Shown here: positions 54,047 through 62,913 of the stretch, one piece after another
Position numbering within the stretch: position 1 is the stretch's first letter
Layout of the letters: the number at the start of each line of letters is the position of its first letter
Source of the DNA: an uncultured Rhodothermales bacterium
GTDB taxonomy: Bacteria > Bacteroidota > Rhodothermia > Rhodothermales > VXPQ01
Assembly (NCBI GenBank): GCA_964608315.1
Contig: CAZSNF010000012.1
Location: 31,718-95,717, forward strand
DNA length: 64,000 nt
Reading direction: 5' to 3'
Notes under the pieces: model-generated
Told to the model about the DNA's origin: nothing
The model's database searches: none
What the model saw: only the letters and a program-made list of their open reading frames with translations
Made by a program: the position numbers and the translations under genes

Positions 54047-54379
54047 TCAGGCGGCCTGGACCACTTGTACCTTGATGCGCAAGTCTTTGTGCTCCTGCAA
54101 GCGTCCAATAACTCCCAGCAGATTGCTGGCCTGAGGATTGCTTTCCGGGCCGAACATGTGGATTAAACTACTCGACCGTTTTGCGGTCAGTTCGCCCAAT
54201 TCCCGAAAGCCGATGGTGGCGTCGATGTAATCGCGGAGCAGAATCTTGCCGGTACCCACTTCCCCTGCAAGAAGGCACTCGATTCCCTCCTTGAGCAATT
54301 CCTCGCCGAATTCCGGATCGCGCTTGATGCGCGCCCGGATCGTTTCCTTGACGTCTCGTGTCAGGGGCATGGTTTTCAA
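54047..54379 (-). CDS. addiction-module antidote protein (HigA/XRE-like antitoxin)
   Basis: About 107-110 aa; the start is TTG 54379 or ATG 54370 (MPLTRDVKETIRARI...). It lies immediately downstream of a RelE/ParE-type killer gene, which is the typical pairing. Confidence 0.75.
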   Translation of the reverse strand: MKTMPLTRDVKETIRARIKRDPEFGEELLKEGIECLLAGEVGTGKILLRDYIDATIGFRELGELTAKRSSSLIHMFGPESNPQASNLLGVIGRLQEHKDLRIKVQVVQAA

Positions 54380-54716
54380 GCCTTGTTTTTTTGAGTTGCT
54401 TGTATTCTTCCCAGAGATCGTGTGCGGCCTCTATGTCTTTTTGCTGATGTTTCTTGGTTCCGCCGCCCAAAAGGATGATAAGGTCATCGCCGTCCTTGCC
54501 GAAATATATCCGGTAACCAGGGCCGGAGTGTATTCGACGTTCGTAGACACCTCTGCCTACGCCTTGGACTTCAGAGAAGTTGCCCTGTTCCATTCGGGCC
54601 CGCACCGTTGCCACCTTGGTTGCAGCCTGAGGGTCAAGCTGATCAAACCACTCGGCGAACGGGCTGCGGTCGTTAGCGGTAATATATTCCCGAATCACAA
54701 TCTGTTTTTGAATCAT
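54168..54716 (-). CDS. RelE/ParE-superfamily addiction-module killer protein, reading frame abnormally extended (possible frameshift)
   Basis: ATG at 54716: MIQKQIVIREYITANDRSPFAEWFDQLD...GPGYRIYFGKDGDDLIILLGGGTKKHQQKDIEAAHDLWEEYKQ. The family is normally about 100 aa. Here the frame runs 183 aa and overlaps the antitoxin gene by 212 nt. Confidence 0.7.
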   Translation of the reverse strand: MIQKQIVIREYITANDRSPFAEWFDQLDPQAATKVATVRARMEQGNFSEVQGVGRGVYERRIHSGPGYRIYFGKDGDDLIILLGGGTKKHQQKDIEAAHDLWEEYKQLKKTRLENHAPDTRRQGNDPGAHQARSGIRRGIAQGGNRVPSCRGSGYRQDSAPRLHRRHHRLSGIGRTDRKTVE

Positions 54717-54736
54717 TCTGAAAAGCAGAAACTTTT

Positions 54737-56407
54737 TTAAAAAAGGAATTGCACCACGCCAGCCTCCTTCAAGTCCAAATAAGTAACCTCTTCCACAACC
54801 GCCTTGTCCAGACCCTCCATCGGATCGGCGAGATGCTTTATGCGCTGGCCGAGGGCGATGATCGTACGGCGTGCGGGCAACGGCATGGCGCGGAATTCGG
54901 TTGCGCTTACCTGGGTATTGCCGCTGATTGTCCGAAACCAGGCGTCGAGCAGTCGGCTGTTGCAAAGCGCCGCAAGGCCCCAGGCTTCGTCCTCCGAGAG
55001 CGTACCGCCGGGGCGGTGCACATAGTTGAGATGATTCTCGAACCCGACCTGCGGCGCGTCGAATCTTTCGGCGATGTAGGGGGCCGCCGTCAACCGACGC
55101 GCTTCTTCTTTCGCGCTGAAGCGGCGCAGGAGCACGTAATTTCTGTTTGGAACAAGAAGTTTTTGGGCGCCCGCGCGTTGAATATATTCCGGCTTGCGGC
55201 AAGACAGGGGCCATGTGGTTTGCATGGCCCGTACATGGTTCATCCATAGCAGAGGCGCGTGGCTCTCCGGCACATTGCCTTCCTTGCCGATGCGTTCCGT
55301 TGCCCGAAACGGCACCACAGGTCCCGTAGAAATATTCAGGCCAAGATGTTGAAGATTGTTCGGCCAGGAATCCATCAGGGCCAGTGCTTCCTCTTCCTCG
55401 TCCCGAACGGGCAAGCGGAGCGCCTTGTTCTCTGAGGCTAAATCAAGCGCCGTGCTCATCGCCACCTCGCGCTTGTCGGATTCGCTCAGGTCGAGGATTC
55501 CCCGACTCGACGAAATAACAAGCGGCGCACTGCACTCGCTTTGACGCGAATGATCCTGGCGGACGCCAGAGACAATAACATTTTCCTGCAGCACCTCATC
55601 CCGGCTGAAGGCGTCGCGTCGCGATCCGAACACATGAATGTCCGTTGGGCGAATCATGCCGAAAAACACCTCGCGAAACCGCCGAAAATATGAACCGGAA
55701 GTAAAACTTCGGGGGGTAATGAAGATGAAATCCCCCTGTTCGCGCAACAGGGCGGCGGCGATCGCCATGAAGAGTGCGTAGATGTTCGGCTGGCCGTGAA
55801 CCACGGCGGAGGCCGCCCGCGCGCGCGGGTCGGCTTTTCCGATCTTGAAGTAAGGAGGATTGGAAACAACGATGTGGAAGCGTTCGATCTCCGCCCGGGA
55901 AGGAAAGAGTTGGCCGAGCGTACACAGCGTTTCAGCGTGCGCCATGACGAAATCGGTTGCCTCGATCCGAACAGCGACCGTTATTCCATAATTGCGACAC
56001 CAGTTCGCAAGATAGTCGAGGACGGTCCGCAACGGCGCAATCAGGTTTTGATCGACTTCATGGGCGACCAGTTCGATCCTGTCCGGTTTTGGGTCGCGGG
56101 AGGCAAGCGCCTCTATGGTCGCACAGCAGAGAACGCCGGCGCCGGCGGCGGGATCAAGGATGCGGAGCCCCGGTCCATCCGCTTTGATTCGCGCCGCCAT
56201 AAAATCGGCCACCGGGACCGGCGTGAGATACAGGCCATGCGCCTTGCGGTGCTTGTCGGAGACGCTTTCGACGTACCATGCGCCGACGCGGTCTGCATAG
56301 ACAGCGGGTCGCTCTCCCTGGCGAGGAACGGGCATTGCAGGGGGCGCAGGCCGGGGCGCGCTACGTACGCGTGGCCGCACTATTTCTTTTTGAACCGTTG
56401 CCCTCAT
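54737..56407 (-). CDS. gamma-class N6-adenine DNA methyltransferase (Eco57I/TaqI-like), no cognate nuclease adjacent
   Basis: Motif I is ILDPAAGAGVL and motif IV is SNPPYFK. The C-terminal half is TRD-like. ORF 54737..56548 has a TTG start; ATGs lie at 56407 and 56335, so the start is uncertain. Confidence 0.85.
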   Translation of the reverse strand: MRATVQKEIVRPRVRSAPRPAPPAMPVPRQGERPAVYADRVGAWYVESVSDKHRKAHGLYLTPVPVADFMAARIKADGPGLRILDPAAGAGVLCCATIEALASRDPKPDRIELVAHEVDQNLIAPLRTVLDYLANWCRNYGITVAVRIEATDFVMAHAETLCTLGQLFPSRAEIERFHIVVSNPPYFKIGKADPRARAASAVVHGQPNIYALFMAIAAALLREQGDFIFITPRSFTSGSYFRRFREVFFGMIRPTDIHVFGSRRDAFSRDEVLQENVIVSGVRQDHSRQSECSAPLVISSSRGILDLSESDKREVAMSTALDLASENKALRLPVRDEEEEALALMDSWPNNLQHLGLNISTGPVVPFRATERIGKEGNVPESHAPLLWMNHVRAMQTTWPLSCRKPEYIQRAGAQKLLVPNRNYVLLRRFSAKEEARRLTAAPYIAERFDAPQVGFENHLNYVHRPGGTLSEDEAWGLAALCNSRLLDAWFRTISGNTQVSATEFRAMPLPARRTIIALGQRIKHLADPMEGLDKAVVEEVTYLDLKEAGVVQFLF

Positions 56408-56553
56408 CCGTTCGCGCGCTACGGGATGGATCGTTCCTGCGAGAAAATAGTCAACCGCCCCGACATATCGGCGTTCCTTGCCAGTCAAAGAGAAAATTCT
56501 GTTCCCTTGCCCGCGCCGGGGCTTCCGTATATTTCCCGAGGCTGCCAAGGCCG

Positions 56554-56657
56554 TAAGGATACTCTGATCAAAACCGCTTCGCTCAGCGCGTCACATTCCT
56601 TGCCAGCGCGCCCCTCGCAGCCTCTGAACTTGCCAGATTTAATCAGAGCATCCTTAA
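56554..56657. repeat. PE family, short (104 bp) copy
   Basis: TAAGGATACTCTGATCAAAACCGCTTCGCTCAGCGCGTCACATTCCTTGCCAGCGCGCCCCTCGCAGCCTCTGAACTTGCCAGATTTAATCAGAGCATCCTTAA. Confidence 0.85.
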
Positions 56658-57067
56658 TCTCCGCAAAAAATGCGGTGAATAAAATGAATCGTGCTTATAT
56701 CCGCAAAAAATGCGGTGAATAAATCTGACCCGCGCCTGTTTCCGCAGAGAACATTGTCCAGGCAACCCGAATCGTCTTATTCGCCGCAAAAAATGCGGTG
56801 AATAACGATGACGGGGTAAAAAAGAAGGTTTTTGCTTCATTTTCGCCCGGATGGTTCGGGCCCACGGCGGGGTAATTCGTCTAATCGCCGCATAAAATGC
56901 GGAGAATCAATTTGAATTACGCCTGTCTCCGCAGAAAACATTGTCCAAGCGGCCCGAATAAAAATCGTGGATGCAGTAGGATTTTGGGATTCTGCTGGCT
57001 CATATGGTTCGGGAGCATGGCGGAACGATGCTCTCGAATCTATTCACCGCAAAAAATGCGGAGAATA
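56655..57067. repeat. cluster of five 27-bp palindromic repeats (R27) with irregular spacing
   Basis: Copies R1 56655-56681, R2 56695-56721, R3 56778-56804, R4 56882-56908 and R5 57041-57067. Consensus: T(A/T)(A/T)TC-N-CCGCA-(A/T)AAAA-TGCGG-N-GAAT(A/C). R5 reads TATTCACCGCA-AAAAA-TGCGGAGAATA, with 10 of 11 arm positions complementary. Confidence 0.85.
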
Positions 57068-57394
57068 GGGGTGGTTGGGGGCAAGGGGGTGGTTTTGGCT
57101 GCGTTCGCGGTGGTGGCGTTTTGGCCGGGAACCCGCCGTCAACGACCGTGTACGCTTCAAGCGGTTGTCTTTGGAGGGCCATTGATGTCCTGGACAGCAA
57201 GATGGGTGGCTGGATTCTTCACGCCACGCTGGACATTGACTGGCGTAAAAGGCTGCGACAGGGAACCGATGCGCGATGAGGAGCAGTGCCTTGGTTCTTA
57301 AAAAGCGATGTTTGTACGGGCGAACGCCATATAGCCCACATTTTACCAATGCCGAGAAGCAAGCGGCCCCGGACTTGAAGAAGGACAGACAGCG

Positions 57395-60217
57395 ATGACA
57401 AACTCGCGGCAATGGCCCTACCCCGGTTCTTGCTGGTGGAAATTCGATTTTCACACGCATACGCCGGCTTCCCGTGATACCCACGCTTGGCAGCAGGCGG
57501 TTGGTACGGAGGACGAGGTTACGCCGGAAAAATGGTTGCTGAAATATATGGATGCCGAAATCGATTGTGTAGCGATTACTGACCACAATAGCGGTGCTTG
57601 GATTGATCCCCTTAAAGCTGCTTACGAGTCGATGAAAAGACAAGCCGATGATGGATCGCCACCAGAGGGATTTCGAGAACTGACGCTGTTTCCGGGGATT
57701 GAGATTTCGGTACAGGGAGGATTCCACCTACTCGCTATCTTGGACCCCAATTCCACTACCAGCGACATCGACACTTTAATCGGGAAGGTGGATTATACCG
57801 GGACCAAGGGAGACAGCGACGGGGTAACGCGCAAGGGTGCAGCCGAGGTGGTTTGTGAAGTCATGGATGCCGGAGGTGTTCCGATCCCGGCTCATGCTGA
57901 CCGGCAAGGTAATAGTGGTAAGGGCCTTCTTGCTGTACGTCCAGGTACCCGTCAACCCCAACTCGACCCCAACACGGTTCTCCAGGTGCTCGACACCGAA
58001 TGTTTATTGGCAATGGAATGGGAAGACATGGAACATCCGTCTCCTGCGCATGTCGAGAAACATCTCAAAAGGTTGGCGCGGGTACTCGGTAGTGATTCCC
58101 ACAATTTTCAAGGTGAGAATTTTCCCGGATCCCGTTACACTTGGGTCAAAATGGCAAAGCCCACACTTGAAGGGTTACGCCTTGCGCTTCTGGATGGCGA
58201 CGGAATTTCGATTCGGCGGAGCGATGATGAGGGAGAGTTCGATCCGTTCCGTAGGCCTGCACACTTCATCACCCGCATTGAGGTCGAAGAGGCGCACCTT
58301 ATGGGTTTGAGCATCCCAACACAACTTGCTACCACACCTTATTTTAACGCACTGATTGGCGGACGCGGTACCGGCAAGTCCACGATAGTTCATGCGTTAC
58401 GTCTCGCGTATCGGCGCGACAAAGAGTTACAGGATTTGGGCGAAGCAACAGAGCCCTATCGCCAGTTCAAAAGTTTTTCCCAACCAGTCAAGGGACGCAA
58501 TGGGGATGGCGGGCTGCGTGATTCCACGGAGATTCGCGTGGAGCTAATGCGCGACGATGTAGAGCACATTCTGCGTTGGCGACAAGATGGTGCCGGTAAT
58601 GTCGTTGAAGAGCGAGACGTGGATGGTCAGTGGAAGCCCACAGCGAGCCGAGAAGTCAATCCTGAGCGTTTTCCGATCCGGCTGTTTTCGCAGAGTCAGA
58701 TTGCGGCCATGGCGGGCGAAGGTCGACAGGGTTTGCTCTATGTCATTGATGACGCTGCTGGCGTTGCCGAATTACATCGCACTTTCGATGAGACGAAAAT
58801 CACCTATTTGGCACAACGCGCCAGACTGCGCGAACTGGATGAAAAATTAGACGGACGACCAGAGTTGGAACGCAAGCTCAATGACTTGAAACGTAAGCTC
58901 ACAGTGTTCACGCAGTCCGATCACGCGCAAGTTTTGAAAGCGCATGAGCAGGCACTGCGTCAACGTCGAGAGATTGATACGATTTTGGAACAATTGGGAG
59001 AAATGCCCGGACGCATCACGGCATTGGCAGAGGATATGCTACTCGACGATTGGCCGGATAGCGTTTTCGATGCCGCACAGGATGGCGATGTGCTTGCTTG
59101 GCGGAGCGAAACCGAGCAACTTGTAGCGGAAATGCGGGAGGCACTCAATCACACTGCTGACGCATTTGATAATAATGTGCAGAAGTTGCAAGCAGACGAA
59201 AGACTTCGCCAATGGCAGAAGCGTGCCGCAAAGGCCAAATCGGACTACGAAACCCTCCAAACGACACTCACCGATCAGGGCGTGACGGATCCGCAAGACT
59301 TTGGACGTTTGGTACAAGAGCGTCAGAGTCTCGAAGTGCAACTTAAGGGGTTGGATCAGTTGAAAAAGGATCGGGACCTTCTTTACAAAAACAACAAAAG
59401 GCAGGAACAACGAGTGCTTGAAGCACGCAAGGCTATCACGGCAGCACGTGCCGAGTTTGTTGCGGAAACGTTGGAGACCAACACCTTCGTGAAAATTGAG
59501 GTCGTCGGTTTTGGCTTCGAGCCTCGTCATATCGAGCAAAGCCTGCGTAGCATTATCGAGGTGACAGATGATCGTTTTGAACATGATATTCTGCGAGAGG
59601 ATGATGGCGAACCGGACGGCGGTTTGGCTTTTGACATAGCACAGGACGAAAATCGAGAAGCGGCCTTAGATGCTGCGAAGCAACAACTAATAGAAATCAG
59701 CGTCGATTTCCGCGGTCAATTTCGCAACTACCTCAAACGTAAGCACGAGAGGCCAGAGTTCTCCGATCACATCCGGTGCTGGTTCTCGGAGGATGATCTT
59801 CGGATTGAATACAGTCGCCAAGGGGATGGCAGCGATTGGACACCCATCACCCAAGGCTCGCAAGGGCAACGTTCAGCGGCACTGCTGGCGTTTCTGCTTG
59901 CATTCGGCGATGAACCCCTTGTATTGGATCAGCCCGAGGACGATTTGGACAATCACCTTATTTACGACCTGGTGGTACGACAGATTCGCGAGAACAAATT
60001 GCGGCGGCAACTGATCATAGTCACTCACAACCCCAATGTGTTGATTAACGGCGACGCAGAAATGGTCCATGCTTTCGACTTTAGAAGCGGCCAATGCCAA
60101 GTCATTGAGCAAGGCGCCCTACAAGAAGAAGAAGTCCGGGAAGAAGTTTGCCGGGTCATGGAGGGTGGACGGGAGGCATTCGCTCGGCGCTGGGAACGCT
60201 TGGGACGAGAGGTCTGA
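57395..60217 (+). CDS. PHP-domain phosphoesterase fused to an SMC/Rad50-like ABC ATPase (940 aa)
   Basis: PHP motifs: FDFHTHTPAS (aa 17-26), ITDHN (61-65), PAHAD (165-169), GSDSH (232-236). ATPase motifs: Walker A GGRGTGKST (322-330), signature-like GSQGQRSAAL (821-830), Walker B LVLDQPEDDLD (842-852), THNPN (877-881). A long charged coiled-coil-like insert lies between them. An SD-like GAAGAAGGA ends 9 nt upstream of the ATG. Confidence 0.85.
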   Translation: MTNSRQWPYPGSCWWKFDFHTHTPASRDTHAWQQAVGTEDEVTPEKWLLKYMDAEIDCVAITDHNSGAWIDPLKAAYESMKRQADDGSPPEGFRELTLFPGIEISVQGGFHLLAILDPNSTTSDIDTLIGKVDYTGTKGDSDGVTRKGAAEVVCEVMDAGGVPIPAHADRQGNSGKGLLAVRPGTRQPQLDPNTVLQVLDTECLLAMEWEDMEHPSPAHVEKHLKRLARVLGSDSHNFQGENFPGSRYTWVKMAKPTLEGLRLALLDGDGISIRRSDDEGEFDPFRRPAHFITRIEVEEAHLMGLSIPTQLATTPYFNALIGGRGTGKSTIVHALRLAYRRDKELQDLGEATEPYRQFKSFSQPVKGRNGDGGLRDSTEIRVELMRDDVEHILRWRQDGAGNVVEERDVDGQWKPTASREVNPERFPIRLFSQSQIAAMAGEGRQGLLYVIDDAAGVAELHRTFDETKITYLAQRARLRELDEKLDGRPELERKLNDLKRKLTVFTQSDHAQVLKAHEQALRQRREIDTILEQLGEMPGRITALAEDMLLDDWPDSVFDAAQDGDVLAWRSETEQLVAEMREALNHTADAFDNNVQKLQADERLRQWQKRAAKAKSDYETLQTTLTDQGVTDPQDFGRLVQERQSLEVQLKGLDQLKKDRDLLYKNNKRQEQRVLEARKAITAARAEFVAETLETNTFVKIEVVGFGFEPRHIEQSLRSIIEVTDDRFEHDILREDDGEPDGGLAFDIAQDENREAALDAAKQQLIEISVDFRGQFRNYLKRKHERPEFSDHIRCWFSEDDLRIEYSRQGDGSDWTPITQGSQGQRSAALLAFLLAFGDEPLVLDQPEDDLDNHLIYDLVVRQIRENKLRRQLIIVTHNPNVLINGDAEMVHAFDFRSGQCQVIEQGALQEEEVREEVCRVMEGGREAFARRWERLGREV

Positions 60218-60218
60218 T

Positions 60219-61481
60219 ATGTTTGCCACACGTAAAGAACTTCTGGAAAAGATTCGTTTGGGCGAAGGCAGCTTCCTTGAGCTGAAGGAAGTGCGTTTTG
60301 CCGGTAGCAAGATTCGTGGTCCAAAGAGAGATGATCTTGCCGATGAATTGGCGGCCTTCGCCAACAGTCATGGCGGGGTGCTGGTGCTCGGCGTAGATGA
60401 CAGAACGCGTGGAATTCTGGGGATTCCGGAACAGCATCTCACTGAGGTAGAGCGTTTTGTCCATCAGCTTTGCCATGATTCAATAGATCCGCCGATAGCA
60501 CCCATTATTGATCCGCTACTATTGCCGACGGCTACCGGAGAAGAAGTGGCCGTTATCAAAATCGATGTGCCTCGCAGTCTTTTCGTCCATCGCAGTCCCG
60601 GCGGTTTTTTGCACCGTGTCGGCAGCGCCAAGCGCGTTATGTCTTCCGAATATCTTGCCCGCTTGTTTCAGCAACGCAGTCAGGTCCGTATCATCCGTTT
60701 CGACGAGCAGGTCGTTCCCCACGCCAGCTTGCGTGACTTGCAGCCAGCCCTTTCGGAGAGATTTCGGACTTCTCGGTCTCACGATACGCCAGAAGCTCTT
60801 CTGTCCAAACTTCACATGGCTCGCATAGATGATGAAGGGGTATTGAGTCCGACGGTGGCGGGCGTATTGGTCGCTTCCCAGGACCCCCGGGAATGGCTAC
60901 CCAATGCTTATGTACAGGCGGTTTGCTATCGGGGAGTCAATATTCATACCGACCAAGCCACAGATCCGTATCAACTTGACGCGGACGATATTACAGGCCC
61001 GCTTGATATTCAGGTGGTGGAGGCTTGTCGCTTCGTTGCCAAGAACATGAAGGTAGCAGCCTTTAAACATATGGGTCGTCTGGATCGCCCGCAGTTTGAC
61101 ATGGAAGCGGTTTTTGAAGCGATAGTCAACGCAGTCGCCCATCGAGATTATTCCATTCACGGCTCAAAAATCAGGTTGCGGCTGTTCAGTGATCGTTTAG
61201 AGTTGTATTCCCCGGGTGCACTTTCCAATACGATGGCAGTTGAGGAATTGGCCTACCTGCAATCGGCAAGGAATGAGATTATCGCCAGTTTGCTTGCAAA
61301 ATGTCCGGTTCCGTCTGACGAAGCGTGGCTAAAGACTGATCGTAAAATGTTGATGGATAAGCGCGGGAACGGCGTACCTTTGATTTTGTCTCTGAGCGAA
61401 GCACTTTCCGGTCGCTTACCGGAGTACCGCCTGCTCGGCGAGGCGGAACTCATGCTGACGATTTGGGCTGCGGAGGCGTAG
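60219..61481 (+). CDS. Schlafen/AlbA_2-like N-terminal domain protein with a HATPase_c_4-like C-terminal domain (420 aa)
   Basis: ORF 60069..61481, trimmed to the ATG at 60219, 1 nt after the upstream TGA. N-terminus: LGEGSFLELKEVRF...LAAFANSHGGVLVLGVDD. C-terminus: FEAIVNAVAHRDYSIHGSKIRLRLFSDRLELYSPGAL. Such proteins are commonly annotated as RecG-like or putative transcriptional regulators. Confidence 0.85.
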   Translation: MFATRKELLEKIRLGEGSFLELKEVRFAGSKIRGPKRDDLADELAAFANSHGGVLVLGVDDRTRGILGIPEQHLTEVERFVHQLCHDSIDPPIAPIIDPLLLPTATGEEVAVIKIDVPRSLFVHRSPGGFLHRVGSAKRVMSSEYLARLFQQRSQVRIIRFDEQVVPHASLRDLQPALSERFRTSRSHDTPEALLSKLHMARIDDEGVLSPTVAGVLVASQDPREWLPNAYVQAVCYRGVNIHTDQATDPYQLDADDITGPLDIQVVEACRFVAKNMKVAAFKHMGRLDRPQFDMEAVFEAIVNAVAHRDYSIHGSKIRLRLFSDRLELYSPGALSNTMAVEELAYLQSARNEIIASLLAKCPVPSDEAWLKTDRKMLMDKRGNGVPLILSLSEALSGRLPEYRLLGEAELMLTIWAAEA

Positions 61482-61535
61482 GGATGAGGGCCTCCATGTG
61501 ATCTCGTCAACGTTTTCCGTCGCAGGGTGTCTACA

Positions 61536-61562
61536 TAATCTCCGCAAAAAATGCGGCGAATA
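61536..61562. repeat. R27 palindromic repeat, sixth copy, downstream of the two-gene operon
   Basis: TAATCTCCGCAAAAAATGCGGCGAATA lies 55 nt after the stop at 61481. It is identical to R1 except at one position. Confidence 0.85.
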
Positions 61563-61716
61563 GAGCGTTTTACCTTTGAAGGCATGGAGGCTACCTTGCT
61601 GGTATCCGTGCCTTTGGTTAGCCACTGATGAGGGGCTTATGCCATTGTGCAACCAGCTTCGGGTTTTTCAATGCAAGCCATGCCTATCTATCTGATATCA
61701 GCCATATAGCAGGACA

Positions 61717-62913
61717 ATGAATTCACCCATGCGCTCTTCAAAGATATCGCTCCTTATAGTCGCGGCTGTAATGGCTTATGGGGTGGTGGGTGTCTCGGCT
61801 CCAATGATTGCTCTTGCGCAGCCAGCACAGGTTCCTGTCACCCAGGAAACCAATACGCTAAGCGAGGCTTCGGGGGCTGACACGATAAGCGGTACGCAGA
61901 TGGCGTACGGCGATATCCAGCAGGGCTCTGATCGTTATTCCAACGCAGAAATCGACCACAGATTCAACGAGATACGACGCGAACTACTGGACGACCGGGC
62001 GAGCACTATCGAATGGTGGTTGGCTGCTGTTGGTGTGTTTTTGGCCTTTCTTGCTATCCTCGGCCTCTTTGGATTCAGGGAATTGTGGGAAATCAAAAAA
62101 GAAGCGCGGGAGGCCATTGCAAAAACACACGAAGCGACTGAAAAAGCGAAAGAAAGTGCCAATAAGGCCAGACGTCATGCCGAAGATGCTGAGAAGGACC
62201 AGGGGGTAATTACCGAGATGCGTCGGGATATGACCGCAGAAAGTGCCGCAGACAATCCGGCTATCGCACAACAGGCTGTGGATGTCAGCAAGGATCCCGC
62301 TGCATCACACATTGACAAAGCTATTGCCCGCGCTATTTCTCTCCAGAAAGAAGGAAAAATAGAGGAAGCTATAAAAATCTGGCAGGGCATTGCCGATGCC
62401 ATTACGGGAATCGCCAATGACCTTGCGGCCCGTGCTTGGTTTTCTGTTGGTTATCTGGAAAGTATTCGAGGTGATAAAGCAAACTATGAGGAAGTGATTT
62501 CGGCCTACAATCAAGCAATCCGTTTGGGCCTAAACTATGCCGCGGTCTATAATAACCGTGGCCTTGCCAAGGTTGAAATGGGCCAGTATAAAGATGCTAT
62601 TGATGATTACAATGAAGCAATTCATTTGGATCCATACGATGCCAAAACTTACACTAACCGTGGCATCGCGAAGGATGAACTCGGCCAATATAAAGCTGCC
62701 ATTACTGACTACGATGAAGCGATCCGTTTAGAACCATACGATGCCAAAATTTACTATAATCGTGGACTTGTCAAGAGAAGAATGGGCTGCTTAGCTGAAG
62801 CACGTATAGACTTCGAAAAAGCGTTCGAGATTGCGCAAGAGATCGGAAATAAAGAAGTTCTTGCCGCGGCAGAAAAGAATCTTCGCAAACTCGAAAACGG
62901 CGAGAATGCCTGA
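61717..62913 (+). CDS. TPR-repeat protein with an N-terminal signal/TM segment and an internal TM helix
   Basis: The 398-aa ORF has ISLLIVAAVMAYGVVGVSAPMIALA at the N-terminus, a TM helix WWLAAVGVFLAFLAILGLFGF and a charged helical region. It then has at least 4 TPR units (AIxxYNEAIRLxPxxAxxYxNRG). G+C is visibly lower here. Confidence 0.8.
   Translation: MNSPMRSSKISLLIVAAVMAYGVVGVSAPMIALAQPAQVPVTQETNTLSEASGADTISGTQMAYGDIQQGSDRYSNAEIDHRFNEIRRELLDDRASTIEWWLAAVGVFLAFLAILGLFGFRELWEIKKEAREAIAKTHEATEKAKESANKARRHAEDAEKDQGVITEMRRDMTAESAADNPAIAQQAVDVSKDPAASHIDKAIARAISLQKEGKIEEAIKIWQGIADAITGIANDLAARAWFSVGYLESIRGDKANYEEVISAYNQAIRLGLNYAAVYNNRGLAKVEMGQYKDAIDDYNEAIHLDPYDAKTYTNRGIAKDELGQYKAAITDYDEAIRLEPYDAKIYYNRGLVKRRMGCLAEARIDFEKAFEIAQEIGNKEVLAAAEKNLRKLENGENA

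Follow-up and report, generated by a model that had tools for sequence, protein, structure and literature searches.

Two adjacent genes, gene A (57395..60217) and gene B (60219..61481), located on the forward strand of the 64-kb stretch of DNA shown above (the whole of which is referred to as the window), were characterized and compared with the closest described systems. Gene A, an open reading frame (ORF) of the trlF type, encodes a protein of 940 amino acids, and gene B, assigned from its ORF and Pfam matches to the trlG type, encodes a stand-alone protein of 420 amino acids with a Schlafen (AlbA_2) domain and a GHKL ATPase domain, a combination also named 'Schlatpase'. With a probability of roughly 0.6, the pair is considered to be a mobile two-gene anti-phage or anti-plasmid module, of the operon type represented by the temperature restriction locus (TRL) of Photorhabdus.

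The closest relative of gene A among defence proteins is Ppl, which Gao et al. in 2020 reportedly described as a single-gene anti-phage system. Ppl restricts T7 and Bas63 lacking gene 130. In a 2026 review, the protein from E. coli is presented as a 3'-5' exonuclease of single-stranded DNA that is activated by 3'-OH ends and inhibited by nucleoside triphosphates bound at both its PHP and NTPase domains.

The TRL of Photorhabdus laumondii is an operon of three genes, trlR-trlF-trlG (Hapeshi et al. 2020, PMC7554251). The first of them encodes a putative regulator of 79 amino acids, trlF is annotated as a histidinol phosphatase, and trlG, mis-annotated as recG, contains AlbA_2 and HATPase_c_4 domains. 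Spontaneous mutants growing at 36 °C carried substitutions, stop codons or insertion sequences in trlG, with both domains hit; deletion of the operon likewise relieved the arrest at 36 °C, and the operon restored it in trans. Expression increases upon a shift to higher temperature and late in growth. The locus lies between polA and dsbA, is active without BREX and shows a patchy distribution, being present in 21 of 46 Photorhabdus genomes and in 12 of 1218 genomes of V. cholerae. Phage is never mentioned and a defence role is never proposed in that study (PMC7554251).

With respect to gene B, the SLFN plus GHKL module of SLFN-pAgo undergoes ATP-driven tetramerisation and cleaves tRNA, and infection is aborted (bioRxiv 10.64898/2026.05.29.728809), and prokaryotic Schlafens with other fused domains act in phage defence through tRNA cleavage (bioRxiv 10.1101/2025.07.24.666596). 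In the prokaryotic Schlafen literature searched, no stand-alone Slfn-HisKinase protein shown to defend was found. A 2026 survey of BREX reported, in at least 1017 taxa, Schlafen RNases in fusion with a minimal histidine kinase and a winged helix-turn-helix domain; their genes are closely associated with BREX and DUF499 loci, and the survey terms them 'backup suicidal effectors' without mention of a PHP partner.

The earlier note on this DNA, made from the sequence alone, knew of no described operon formed by such a pair. That claim has to be withdrawn: trlF-trlG of the Photorhabdus TRL is such an operon (PMC7554251), and the NCBI TrlF model is named for it. The pair in the window is an addition to an operon type known already; the family of gene A has been named by NCBI, and the class of gene B has been described as a BREX-embedded effector. 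No later use of the names trlF and trlG was found in the searchable literature. The same literature yielded no recognition of the TRL as a Ppl plus a Schlafen tRNase and no report of a trlFG unit nested in BREX, Hma or type I restriction-modification (R-M) loci, two points of which Krishnan et al. 2020 may cover part.

Domains and motifs of the two proteins

The protein of gene A is shown to belong to the Ppl/TrlF family, in which a PHP domain is joined to an SMC/Rad50-like ABC ATPase split by a coiled coil of about 260 amino acids. It matched the NCBIfam TrlF model (NF045780, 'TrlF family AAA-like ATPase') with 595.2 bits over a cut-off of 350, residues 11-937 aligning with positions 2-944 of the model; this model is broad, as a true Ppl also reaches 476 bits. 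With the NCBIfam equivalog model of Ppl (NF042955) it obtained 501 bits, under the cut-off of 1000, while a bona fide plasmid Ppl obtained 1330. The Ppl hidden Markov model of PADLOC matched it from end to end (E=5.7e-121), and PADLOC would therefore probably call it 'Ppl'. Identity to plasmid genes annotated as 'anti-phage protein Ppl' was 28-29% across 99% of the length, and the kinship to Ppl put forward in the earlier note is supported. A total of 4945 homologues were obtained, and at least 953 clusters at 50% identity matched the protein with E≤1e-30.

All of the motifs previously quoted for this protein were located, namely FDFHTHTPAS, ITDHN, PAHAD, GSDSH, GGRGTGKST, GSQGQRSAAL, LVLDQPEDDLD and THNPN, and together with the TrlF model and the predicted fold they agree with the proposed architecture of a PHP domain followed by an SMC/Rad50-like ABC ATPase. 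Invariance was judged over 60 homologues of 60-86% identity. The PHP residues H20, H22, D28, D63, H64, E103, H111, H167, D169, D234 and H236 were invariant, and so were the ABC residues G322-T330, S822, G824, S827, D845-D852 and H878.

The PHP-type metal-dependent phosphoesterase domain, delimited by its invariant ligands and predicted fold, extends approximately from residue 11 to 275 (57425..58219, +), with H20, H22, D28, H64, E103, H111, H167, D234 and H236 as candidate metal ligands. The Pfam check that had been suggested for it failed, since PF02811 (PHP) gave no match at E≤0.01 either with the full-length protein or with residues 1-302. The PHP call is made because of the invariant ligand motifs, a sub-threshold match to the NCBIfam CehA/McbA metallohydrolase model (29 bits, E=5e-7), the full-length matches to the Ppl and TrlF models, and the predicted fold. 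The AlphaFold model of the protein, with a mean predicted local distance difference test (pLDDT) of 84, comprises an N-terminal alpha/beta domain (pLDDT about 90), a split ABC head and helices at residues 433-692 (mostly 80-96). By Foldseek, the N-terminal domain was related to the PHP domain of RNase AM (7ug9; E=2.3e-5, TM 0.58 on the target, 237 columns), and the ATPase with its coiled coil to the heads of MukB (7nyw, 1.3e-10), JetC, Smc and Rad50, with E values from 1e-10 to 1e-5.

The ATPase begins with the invariant Walker A motif or P-loop GGRGTGKST at residues 322-330 (58358..58384, +). Its C-terminal half (59855..60037, +), recognised by invariant motifs and Pfam AAA_21, contains the signature SQGQRS at residues 822-827, the Walker B motif and D-loop LVLDQPEDDLD at 842-852, and the H-loop THNPN at 877-881. 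AAA_21 scored 48.5 bits, above its threshold, and SMC_N and AAA_23 remained below theirs. Between both halves, the AlphaFold helices and the Foldseek matches delimit an antiparallel coiled-coil insertion at approximately residues 433-692 (58691..59470, +). The earlier description of about 490 residues of coiled-coil-like sequence is correct for these 260 residues or so, but the remainder consists of beta structure of the ATPase lobes and a small extra domain. The apex of the coiled coil is situated near residues 547-564, with the sequence LLDDWPDSVFDAAQDGD; neither a CxxC zinc hook nor an SMC hinge was found there, and no C..C motif is present anywhere in the protein. A sequence search of the PDB with the protein of gene A returned no solved Ppl or TrlF structure, only the C-terminus of AriA of PARIS (8v46, E=8e-5). 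A match to Rfam PhrS inside the region encoding the coiled coil (59350-59462, +; 23.6 bits against a gathering threshold of 37, E=0.013) was treated as chance.

Gene B is taken to start at 60219. The mechanically called ORF opens earlier, at 60069, and this longer frame is not considered the gene because the homologues uniformly begin at the 'MF' equivalent to that of 60219. Its proposed composition, a Schlafen-like N-terminus and a HATPase_c_4-like C-terminus, was confirmed by two Pfam models above their gathering thresholds: SLFN_AlbA_2 (PF04326) with 56 bits over 25.3 at residues 16-141 (60264..60641, +), and HATPase_c_4 (PF13749) with 57.9 bits over 26 at residues 315-406 (61161..61436, +). 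The first of these, a nuclease-type domain, contains the conserved Schlafen motif E16-x4-E21-x-K23 and the 'Schlafen box' AAFAN at residues 45-49. Among 20 homologues, E21, K23, A45, A48 and N49 were invariant and E16 and F47 conserved in at least 90%. Just upstream of the GHKL match, the conserved N-box E300...N304 is encoded at 61116-61130 (+), and E300, N304, H308, R309 and D310 were invariant. E300 and N304 are the counterparts of E314 and N318 in the GHKL domain of an SLFN-pAgo (RzAgo), which bind Mg-ATP (bioRxiv 10.64898/2026.05.29.728809). The 7916 homologues of the protein, its PDB sequence matches (3lmm, Slfn8 and SLFN14) and its match to the SLFN-pAgo model of PADLOC (E=1e-13) were also recorded. 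No NCBIfam model matched the protein of gene B or two plasmid TrlG proteins. In both genes of the window the ORF is intact and every family-invariant residue is kept.

The role of 'sensor or regulator' once suggested for gene B is not favoured by these data. The nuclease motif is kept, the SLFN relatives cleave tRNA, and the mutations in Photorhabdus fall in trlG only. Because of the retained motifs and the Photorhabdus genetics, TrlG is interpreted as a growth-arrest effector, and by analogy with its relatives it is more likely a toxic, growth-arresting RNase than a regulator.

Pairing and genomic setting of the two genes

At the junction (60215..60221, +) the TGA stop codon of gene A is followed by one nucleotide and by the ATG of gene B (TGA-t-ATG), exactly as first noticed. 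The letters at the junction are ...GGTCTGAtATGTTT, with a Shine-Dalgarno-like GAGAGG located 8 nt upstream.

To define the distribution of the pair, one genome per species was scanned for relatives of gene A, and each of the 80 resulting loci was searched for gene B. A full-length homologue of gene B (53-81% identity) was present on the same strand, 5-30 nt past the last aligned residue of A, in approximately 73 of the 80 loci. The pair-bearing loci belong to more than ten phyla, which include Latescibacterota, Gamma- and Betaproteobacteria, Acidobacteriota, Chloroflexota, Spirochaetia and Bacteroidota, and also Cyanobacteria, Verrucomicrobia, Myxococcota and Gemmatimonadota. About 5-6 of 79 informative loci lack gene B despite available downstream sequence, and one further locus stops at the contig edge. 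The spacer between the stop of A and the start of B measured exactly 1 nt in 40 of 68-69 clean pairs, and most of the others overlap by 1-11 nt. In a mirror-tree comparison of the 69 pairs, the pairwise-identity matrices of A and B were correlated (r=0.80, Mantel p=0.001). The suggested check of co-occurrence between neighbours thus gave a positive result, and the idea of a fixed, translationally coupled unit is sustained by the adjacency, by 1 nt being the commonest spacer and by the correlation. At the level of gene order and alignment, it is shown that A and B are inherited together and translationally coupled across more than ten phyla.

In the 69 pairs gene B is better conserved than gene A, with a mean pairwise identity of 63% against 52%, and loci whose A is only 45-48% identical to that of the window still hold a B at 62-72%. 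Decay of the pair was observed in a locus where A and B are separated by an insertion of about 1.6 kb (L063, 10835-12446) and in three others with a truncated or fragmented B (L001, L019 and L052).

With regard to the genomic setting, the closest genome (L007, Latescibacterota, 80% identity) presents the order BrxC-PglX-TrlF-TrlG-PglZ-BrxL of a type 1 BREX system, and another locus (L012) the order HmaA-HEC-08/DUF3644-HmaB-TrlF-TrlG-HmaC of an Hma system; the BREX and Hma genes of these two loci obtained PADLOC scores of 1000-2100 bits. About 12 loci of the sample are embedded in BREX and about 10 in Hma, and the pair always occupies the position after the methyltransferase gene and ahead of the next core gene, between pglX and pglZ in BREX and between hmaB and hmaC in Hma. 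In about 50 of the 80 loci no BREX or Hma genes occur within 8 kb, and the cassette is free-standing among housekeeping genes. A distant pair on the E. coli IncC plasmid pNDM102337 (L164; NC_019045.2, 134174-147193), 24% and 29% identical to A and B respectively, keeps the gene order, has an overlapping junction and forms part of a type I R-M operon, HTH-HsdR-TrlF-TrlG-HsdS-AAA-HsdM. We take this IncC enterobacterial pair to represent, presumably, a branch nearer to Photorhabdus. Numerous IncC plasmids from E. coli and Klebsiella have the same type of arrangement. The defence context that had been proposed for the pair is therefore found in its relatives, which lie within operons of BREX, Hma and type I R-M systems. 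The arrangements compared show a mobile cassette, either free-standing or inserted in operons of these three kinds.

No gene similar to trlR was found upstream of the pair in the window, and the 80 loci share no conserved family of this kind. For this search, all ORFs of at least 40 amino acids within 1.5 kb upstream of A were clustered, and the clusters contained only the 3' ends of pglX or hmaB and antisense shadows. Small helix-turn-helix or hypothetical genes precede the pair on two plasmids.

In the window, a decayed 3' end of BREX pglX of about 180 nt is located directly upstream of gene A (57193..57374, +), identified by alignment to the pglX genes of L007, L027 and L052. The local alignment to the pglX 3' end of L007 scored 68 against 19.5±2.4 for shuffled sequences (z=20), and those to L027 and L052 gave z=12 and z=13, respectively; blastn found 83% identity over 54 nt (E=1e-6). 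The remnant is regarded as frameshifted because its peptide traces fall in two frames. No match to BrxC, PglZ or BrxL was obtained anywhere in the 64-kb window, and an apparent pglZ remnant downstream of gene B was discarded, the signal corresponding to the 3' end of gene B itself. The alignments show a window copy that evidently descends from a BREX-embedded one; the cassette has outlived the BREX locus in which it formerly sat.

Proposed function and alternative explanations

In the mechanism proposed, TrlF would act like the Ppl of E. coli, its ATPase and coiled coil monitoring DNA (free 3' ends, single-stranded DNA) and the nucleotide state, and its PHP domain serving as an exonuclease against invading DNA. 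In agreement with the account of Ppl in the 2026 review, and as the earlier note had put forward, we infer that the ATPase and coiled coil sense DNA ends and that the PHP domain is the nuclease. In TrlG, the GHKL domain may mediate an ATP-dependent oligomerisation that assembles the active Schlafen RNase, which would cut tRNA, stop translation and lead to abortive infection. The pair would then be layered, with a direct attack on DNA by TrlF and a suicidal back-up by TrlG. Because it sits inside methylation-based host systems, trlFG may guard them when a phage disables them.

A TrlG that restrains itself, possibly tuned by TrlF, is considered more probable than one kept in check by TrlF, because near-identical TrlG proteins persist without TrlF. 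An obligatory restraint of TrlG by TrlF, as in PARIS, is weakened by intact TrlF-less TrlG proteins of 80-84% identity, and a role of TrlF as required activator of TrlG is weakened by the absence of suppressor mutations in trlF. The complete scheme, in which a Ppl-like sensor of DNA ends and nucleotides with exonuclease activity would be functionally connected with a Schlafen tRNase, the two having evolved as a guard nested within BREX, Hma and type I R-M systems that is triggered once a phage inactivates these, and in which the temperature restriction of Photorhabdus would be a heat-triggered autoimmunity, is held more tentatively, at rather less than even odds.

Should the two genes operate as one functional unit, they would join the literatures on Ppl, on the Schlafen or 'Schlatpase' tRNases and on the TRL, which do not cite each other in the searchable papers. 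Autoimmune tRNA cleavage would then explain the TRL, which bars most Photorhabdus from growth at human body temperature, and a widespread two-gene system would be added to defence catalogues that now label only gene A. Together with PARIS, the pair would also exemplify suicide modules nested in BREX or R-M operons.

Several observations weigh against a defence module of two cooperating proteins. In the searchable literature no demonstration that the trlF-trlG pair is a defence system was found, and temperature restriction is its only phenotype so far (PMC7554251). No mutation was recovered in the larger trlF among the Photorhabdus mutants growing at 36 °C (PMC7554251), which fits a TrlF dispensable for the toxicity of TrlG. 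The mechanism of Ppl is given in the review in a single sentence with no visible citation. On the side of TrlG, the predicted structure is poor (pLDDT 54), and the two protective pSlfns, beside five others tested, are not of the Slfn-HisKinase type (bioRxiv 10.1101/2025.07.24.666596); for TrlF, the absence of a Pfam PHP match described above counts in the same direction. The functional link between TrlF and TrlG is a putative one, drawn only from operon structure and co-inheritance.

The partners are also found separately, and on this the best surviving alternative is based, namely that a Ppl-like nuclease and a Schlafen-GHKL RNase are two independent single-gene systems that travel together uncoupled. 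In a reverse sample of 80 metagenome loci, each with a gene for a B-like protein (40-66% identity), gene A was directly upstream in 28, there was room but no A in 46, and 6 were uninformative, so that 46 of 74 informative loci have a TrlG-like gene without TrlF. The genes upstream of the TrlF-less TrlGs are heterogeneous (a UvrD-type helicase inside BREX, an SNF2 helicase, an N6/N4 methylase, a housekeeping mutase), and some of these TrlGs are 80-84% identical to TrlF-linked copies. Conversely, the plasmid Ppl of pCY706 has no TrlG neighbour, and two plasmid TrlFs of 39-51% identity (L081 and L083) have no B; nothing consistent was found as a replacement effector downstream of TrlG-less TrlFs. 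Moreover, Ppl functions as a single gene, and the phenotype in Photorhabdus maps to trlG only. Against independence stand the 1-nt or overlapping junction and the fixed order and strand over more than ten phyla, down to 24-29% identity, which is not normal for independent neighbours, the co-variation of the distance matrices (r=0.80), and the lack of TrlG in so few of the 79 informative loci of the TrlF clade. Independent partners are therefore judged unlikely, perhaps one chance in a few. The association of A and B is strong but asymmetric and not obligatory: of the earlier claim that A is fixed in an operon with B, the part that stands is that the TrlF clade almost always has TrlG, and the part that does not is the converse, as TrlG-like proteins are often alone.

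Some of these loci presented further particularities. In L081, on the E. coli IncF plasmid NZ_CP097432.1, the genes ahead of a TrlF of 51% identity encode a DEAD/DEAH helicase and an N6 methylase that has a type I specificity domain; TrlG is absent, and about 940 nt past TrlF are unannotated. In two BREX loci the TrlG-like gene is preceded by another gene in place of TrlF, a UvrD-type helicase in L143 (2953-6251) and an unidentified gene in L098, and these replacements suggest that partners are swapped at the common insertion point between pglX and pglZ.

A second alternative is that TrlF and TrlG form an accessory nuclease or effector arm of BREX, Hma and type I R-M systems, the copy in the window being a functionless orphan of a lost BREX. 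The conserved insertion point, which in both BREX and Hma follows the methyltransferase and precedes the next core gene, the distant pair inside a type I R-M operon, the label of 'backup effectors' given to such Schlafen genes in the BREX survey and, for the window, the pglX remnant beside gene A with no BrxC, PglZ or BrxL are in its favour. It is nevertheless improbable, given that BREX or Hma genes are missing within 8 kb of the pair in about 50 of the 80 loci, that the Photorhabdus TRL between polA and dsbA is active without BREX (PMC7554251), that three unrelated host systems accommodate one and the same cassette, as would be expected of an autonomous module like PARIS, and that both ORFs of the window are intact with all family-invariant residues. 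A physiological stress or temperature regulator, as first proposed for the TRL, that curbs growth in stationary phase or once a temperature threshold is exceeded, with no immune role, would agree with the induction by up-shift and late growth and with growth at 36 °C upon loss of the operon (PMC7554251), but is very improbable in view of the patchy, horizontally transferred distribution (21 of 46 Photorhabdus and 12 of 1218 V. cholerae genomes), the presence of the cassette on conjugative plasmids and inside BREX, Hma and R-M operons, the low-GC, repeat-flanked island in the window and the homology of both proteins to validated anti-phage proteins, and because heat-triggered autoimmunity of a defence system explains the phenotype equally well. 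The interpretation of trlF-trlG as a mobile anti-phage or anti-plasmid module is consequently preferred.

Window neighbourhood and comparison with known systems

The toxin-antitoxin pair, methyltransferase, lower G+C and bracketing palindromes previously pointed out around the two genes were all located in the window. The G+C content is 0.53 over 54047-62913 and 0.60 in the rest of the window. Domain searches placed on the reverse strand, within 54047-54716, a Gp49/HigB-like toxin (54168-54716) and an antitoxin of helix-turn-helix type (54047-54379). At about 54375, where the domain usually ends, the toxin ORF contains no stop codon, and it runs some 69 codons more across the antitoxin start, which represents either an unusual gene overlap or the loss of the toxin stop codon. 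They are followed by an Eco57I/N6_Mtase type II methyltransferase (54737-56548), identified with Pfam and PADLOC models. Downstream of gene B, a protein of 398 amino acids (61717-62913, +) combines a hydrophobic segment at its N-terminus with a charged helical region and with TPR repeats at its C-terminus, and its gene shows the lowest G+C of the window (0.48-0.52). None of the related loci has the methyltransferase, the antitoxin or the TPR protein near the pair; because these neighbours are not conserved, they are not considered parts of the module, and A plus B is taken as the mobile unit.

A repeat search detected a 27-nt palindrome, TATTCnCCGCAAAAAATGCGGnGAATA, in five copies upstream of the cassette (56655..57067) and in a sixth copy 55 nt downstream of gene B (61536..61562). 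Zero copies would be expected by chance, and there are none elsewhere in the 64 kb. Two of the upstream copies lie within a 79-nt direct repeat (56694-56772 and 56881-56959). The palindrome was absent from all 163 related loci analysed, and it is therefore regarded as a feature of this genome and not of the cassette; it may be a REP/MITE-like element (repetitive extragenic palindrome or miniature inverted-repeat transposable element) or a recombination scar.

When compared with known systems, the window does not contain a type 1 BREX (brxA/B/C, pglX, pglZ, brxL), of which only the pglX 3' remnant of about 180 nt is present. The pair shares with SbcCD/Mre11-Rad50, Wadjet JetABCD and Lamassu the ABC heads split by a coiled coil and coupled to a nuclease. 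It differs from them in that the PHP nuclease of A is fused in cis at the N-terminus, the coiled coil is short (about 130 amino acids per arm), and zinc hook, hinge, kleisin and KITE partners are lacking in trlFG.

Like SLFN-pAgo and the prokaryotic Schlafens, the protein of gene B has the AlbA_2 plus PF13749 supradomain, the E-x4-(D/E)-x-K motif, the AFAN box and the E and N residues of GHKL, but it lacks any sensor domain of the Argonaute, Ig-like or DUF262 type; its input may come from TrlF. PARIS is likewise a two-gene system, of an ABC ATPase (AriA) and a tRNA-targeting nuclease (AriB), and frequently resides within BREX and R-M loci, where it serves as an anti-anti-restriction back-up; the C-terminal ATPase half of A resembles AriA. 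However, AriA is of the OLD family, without a PHP domain or long coiled coil, and AriB is a TOPRIM protein and not a Schlafen. In addition, the ATPase of PARIS sequesters the effector, whereas TrlG persists without TrlF, which argues against obligatory restraint.

Ppl (PADLOC PDLC02208; NCBIfam NF042955) is homologous to A over the full length and has the same combination of PHP domain and ATPase with coiled coil. At about 28% identity it is distinguished by standing alone without a Schlafen partner, while A has in its clade the fixed partner B. The Photorhabdus TRL agrees with the window locus in having trlF followed by trlG, with AlbA_2 and HATPase_c_4 domains, in one operon, as matched by its published description (PMC7554251) and by the NCBIfam TrlF model, and the pair of the window differs from it as a distant branch.

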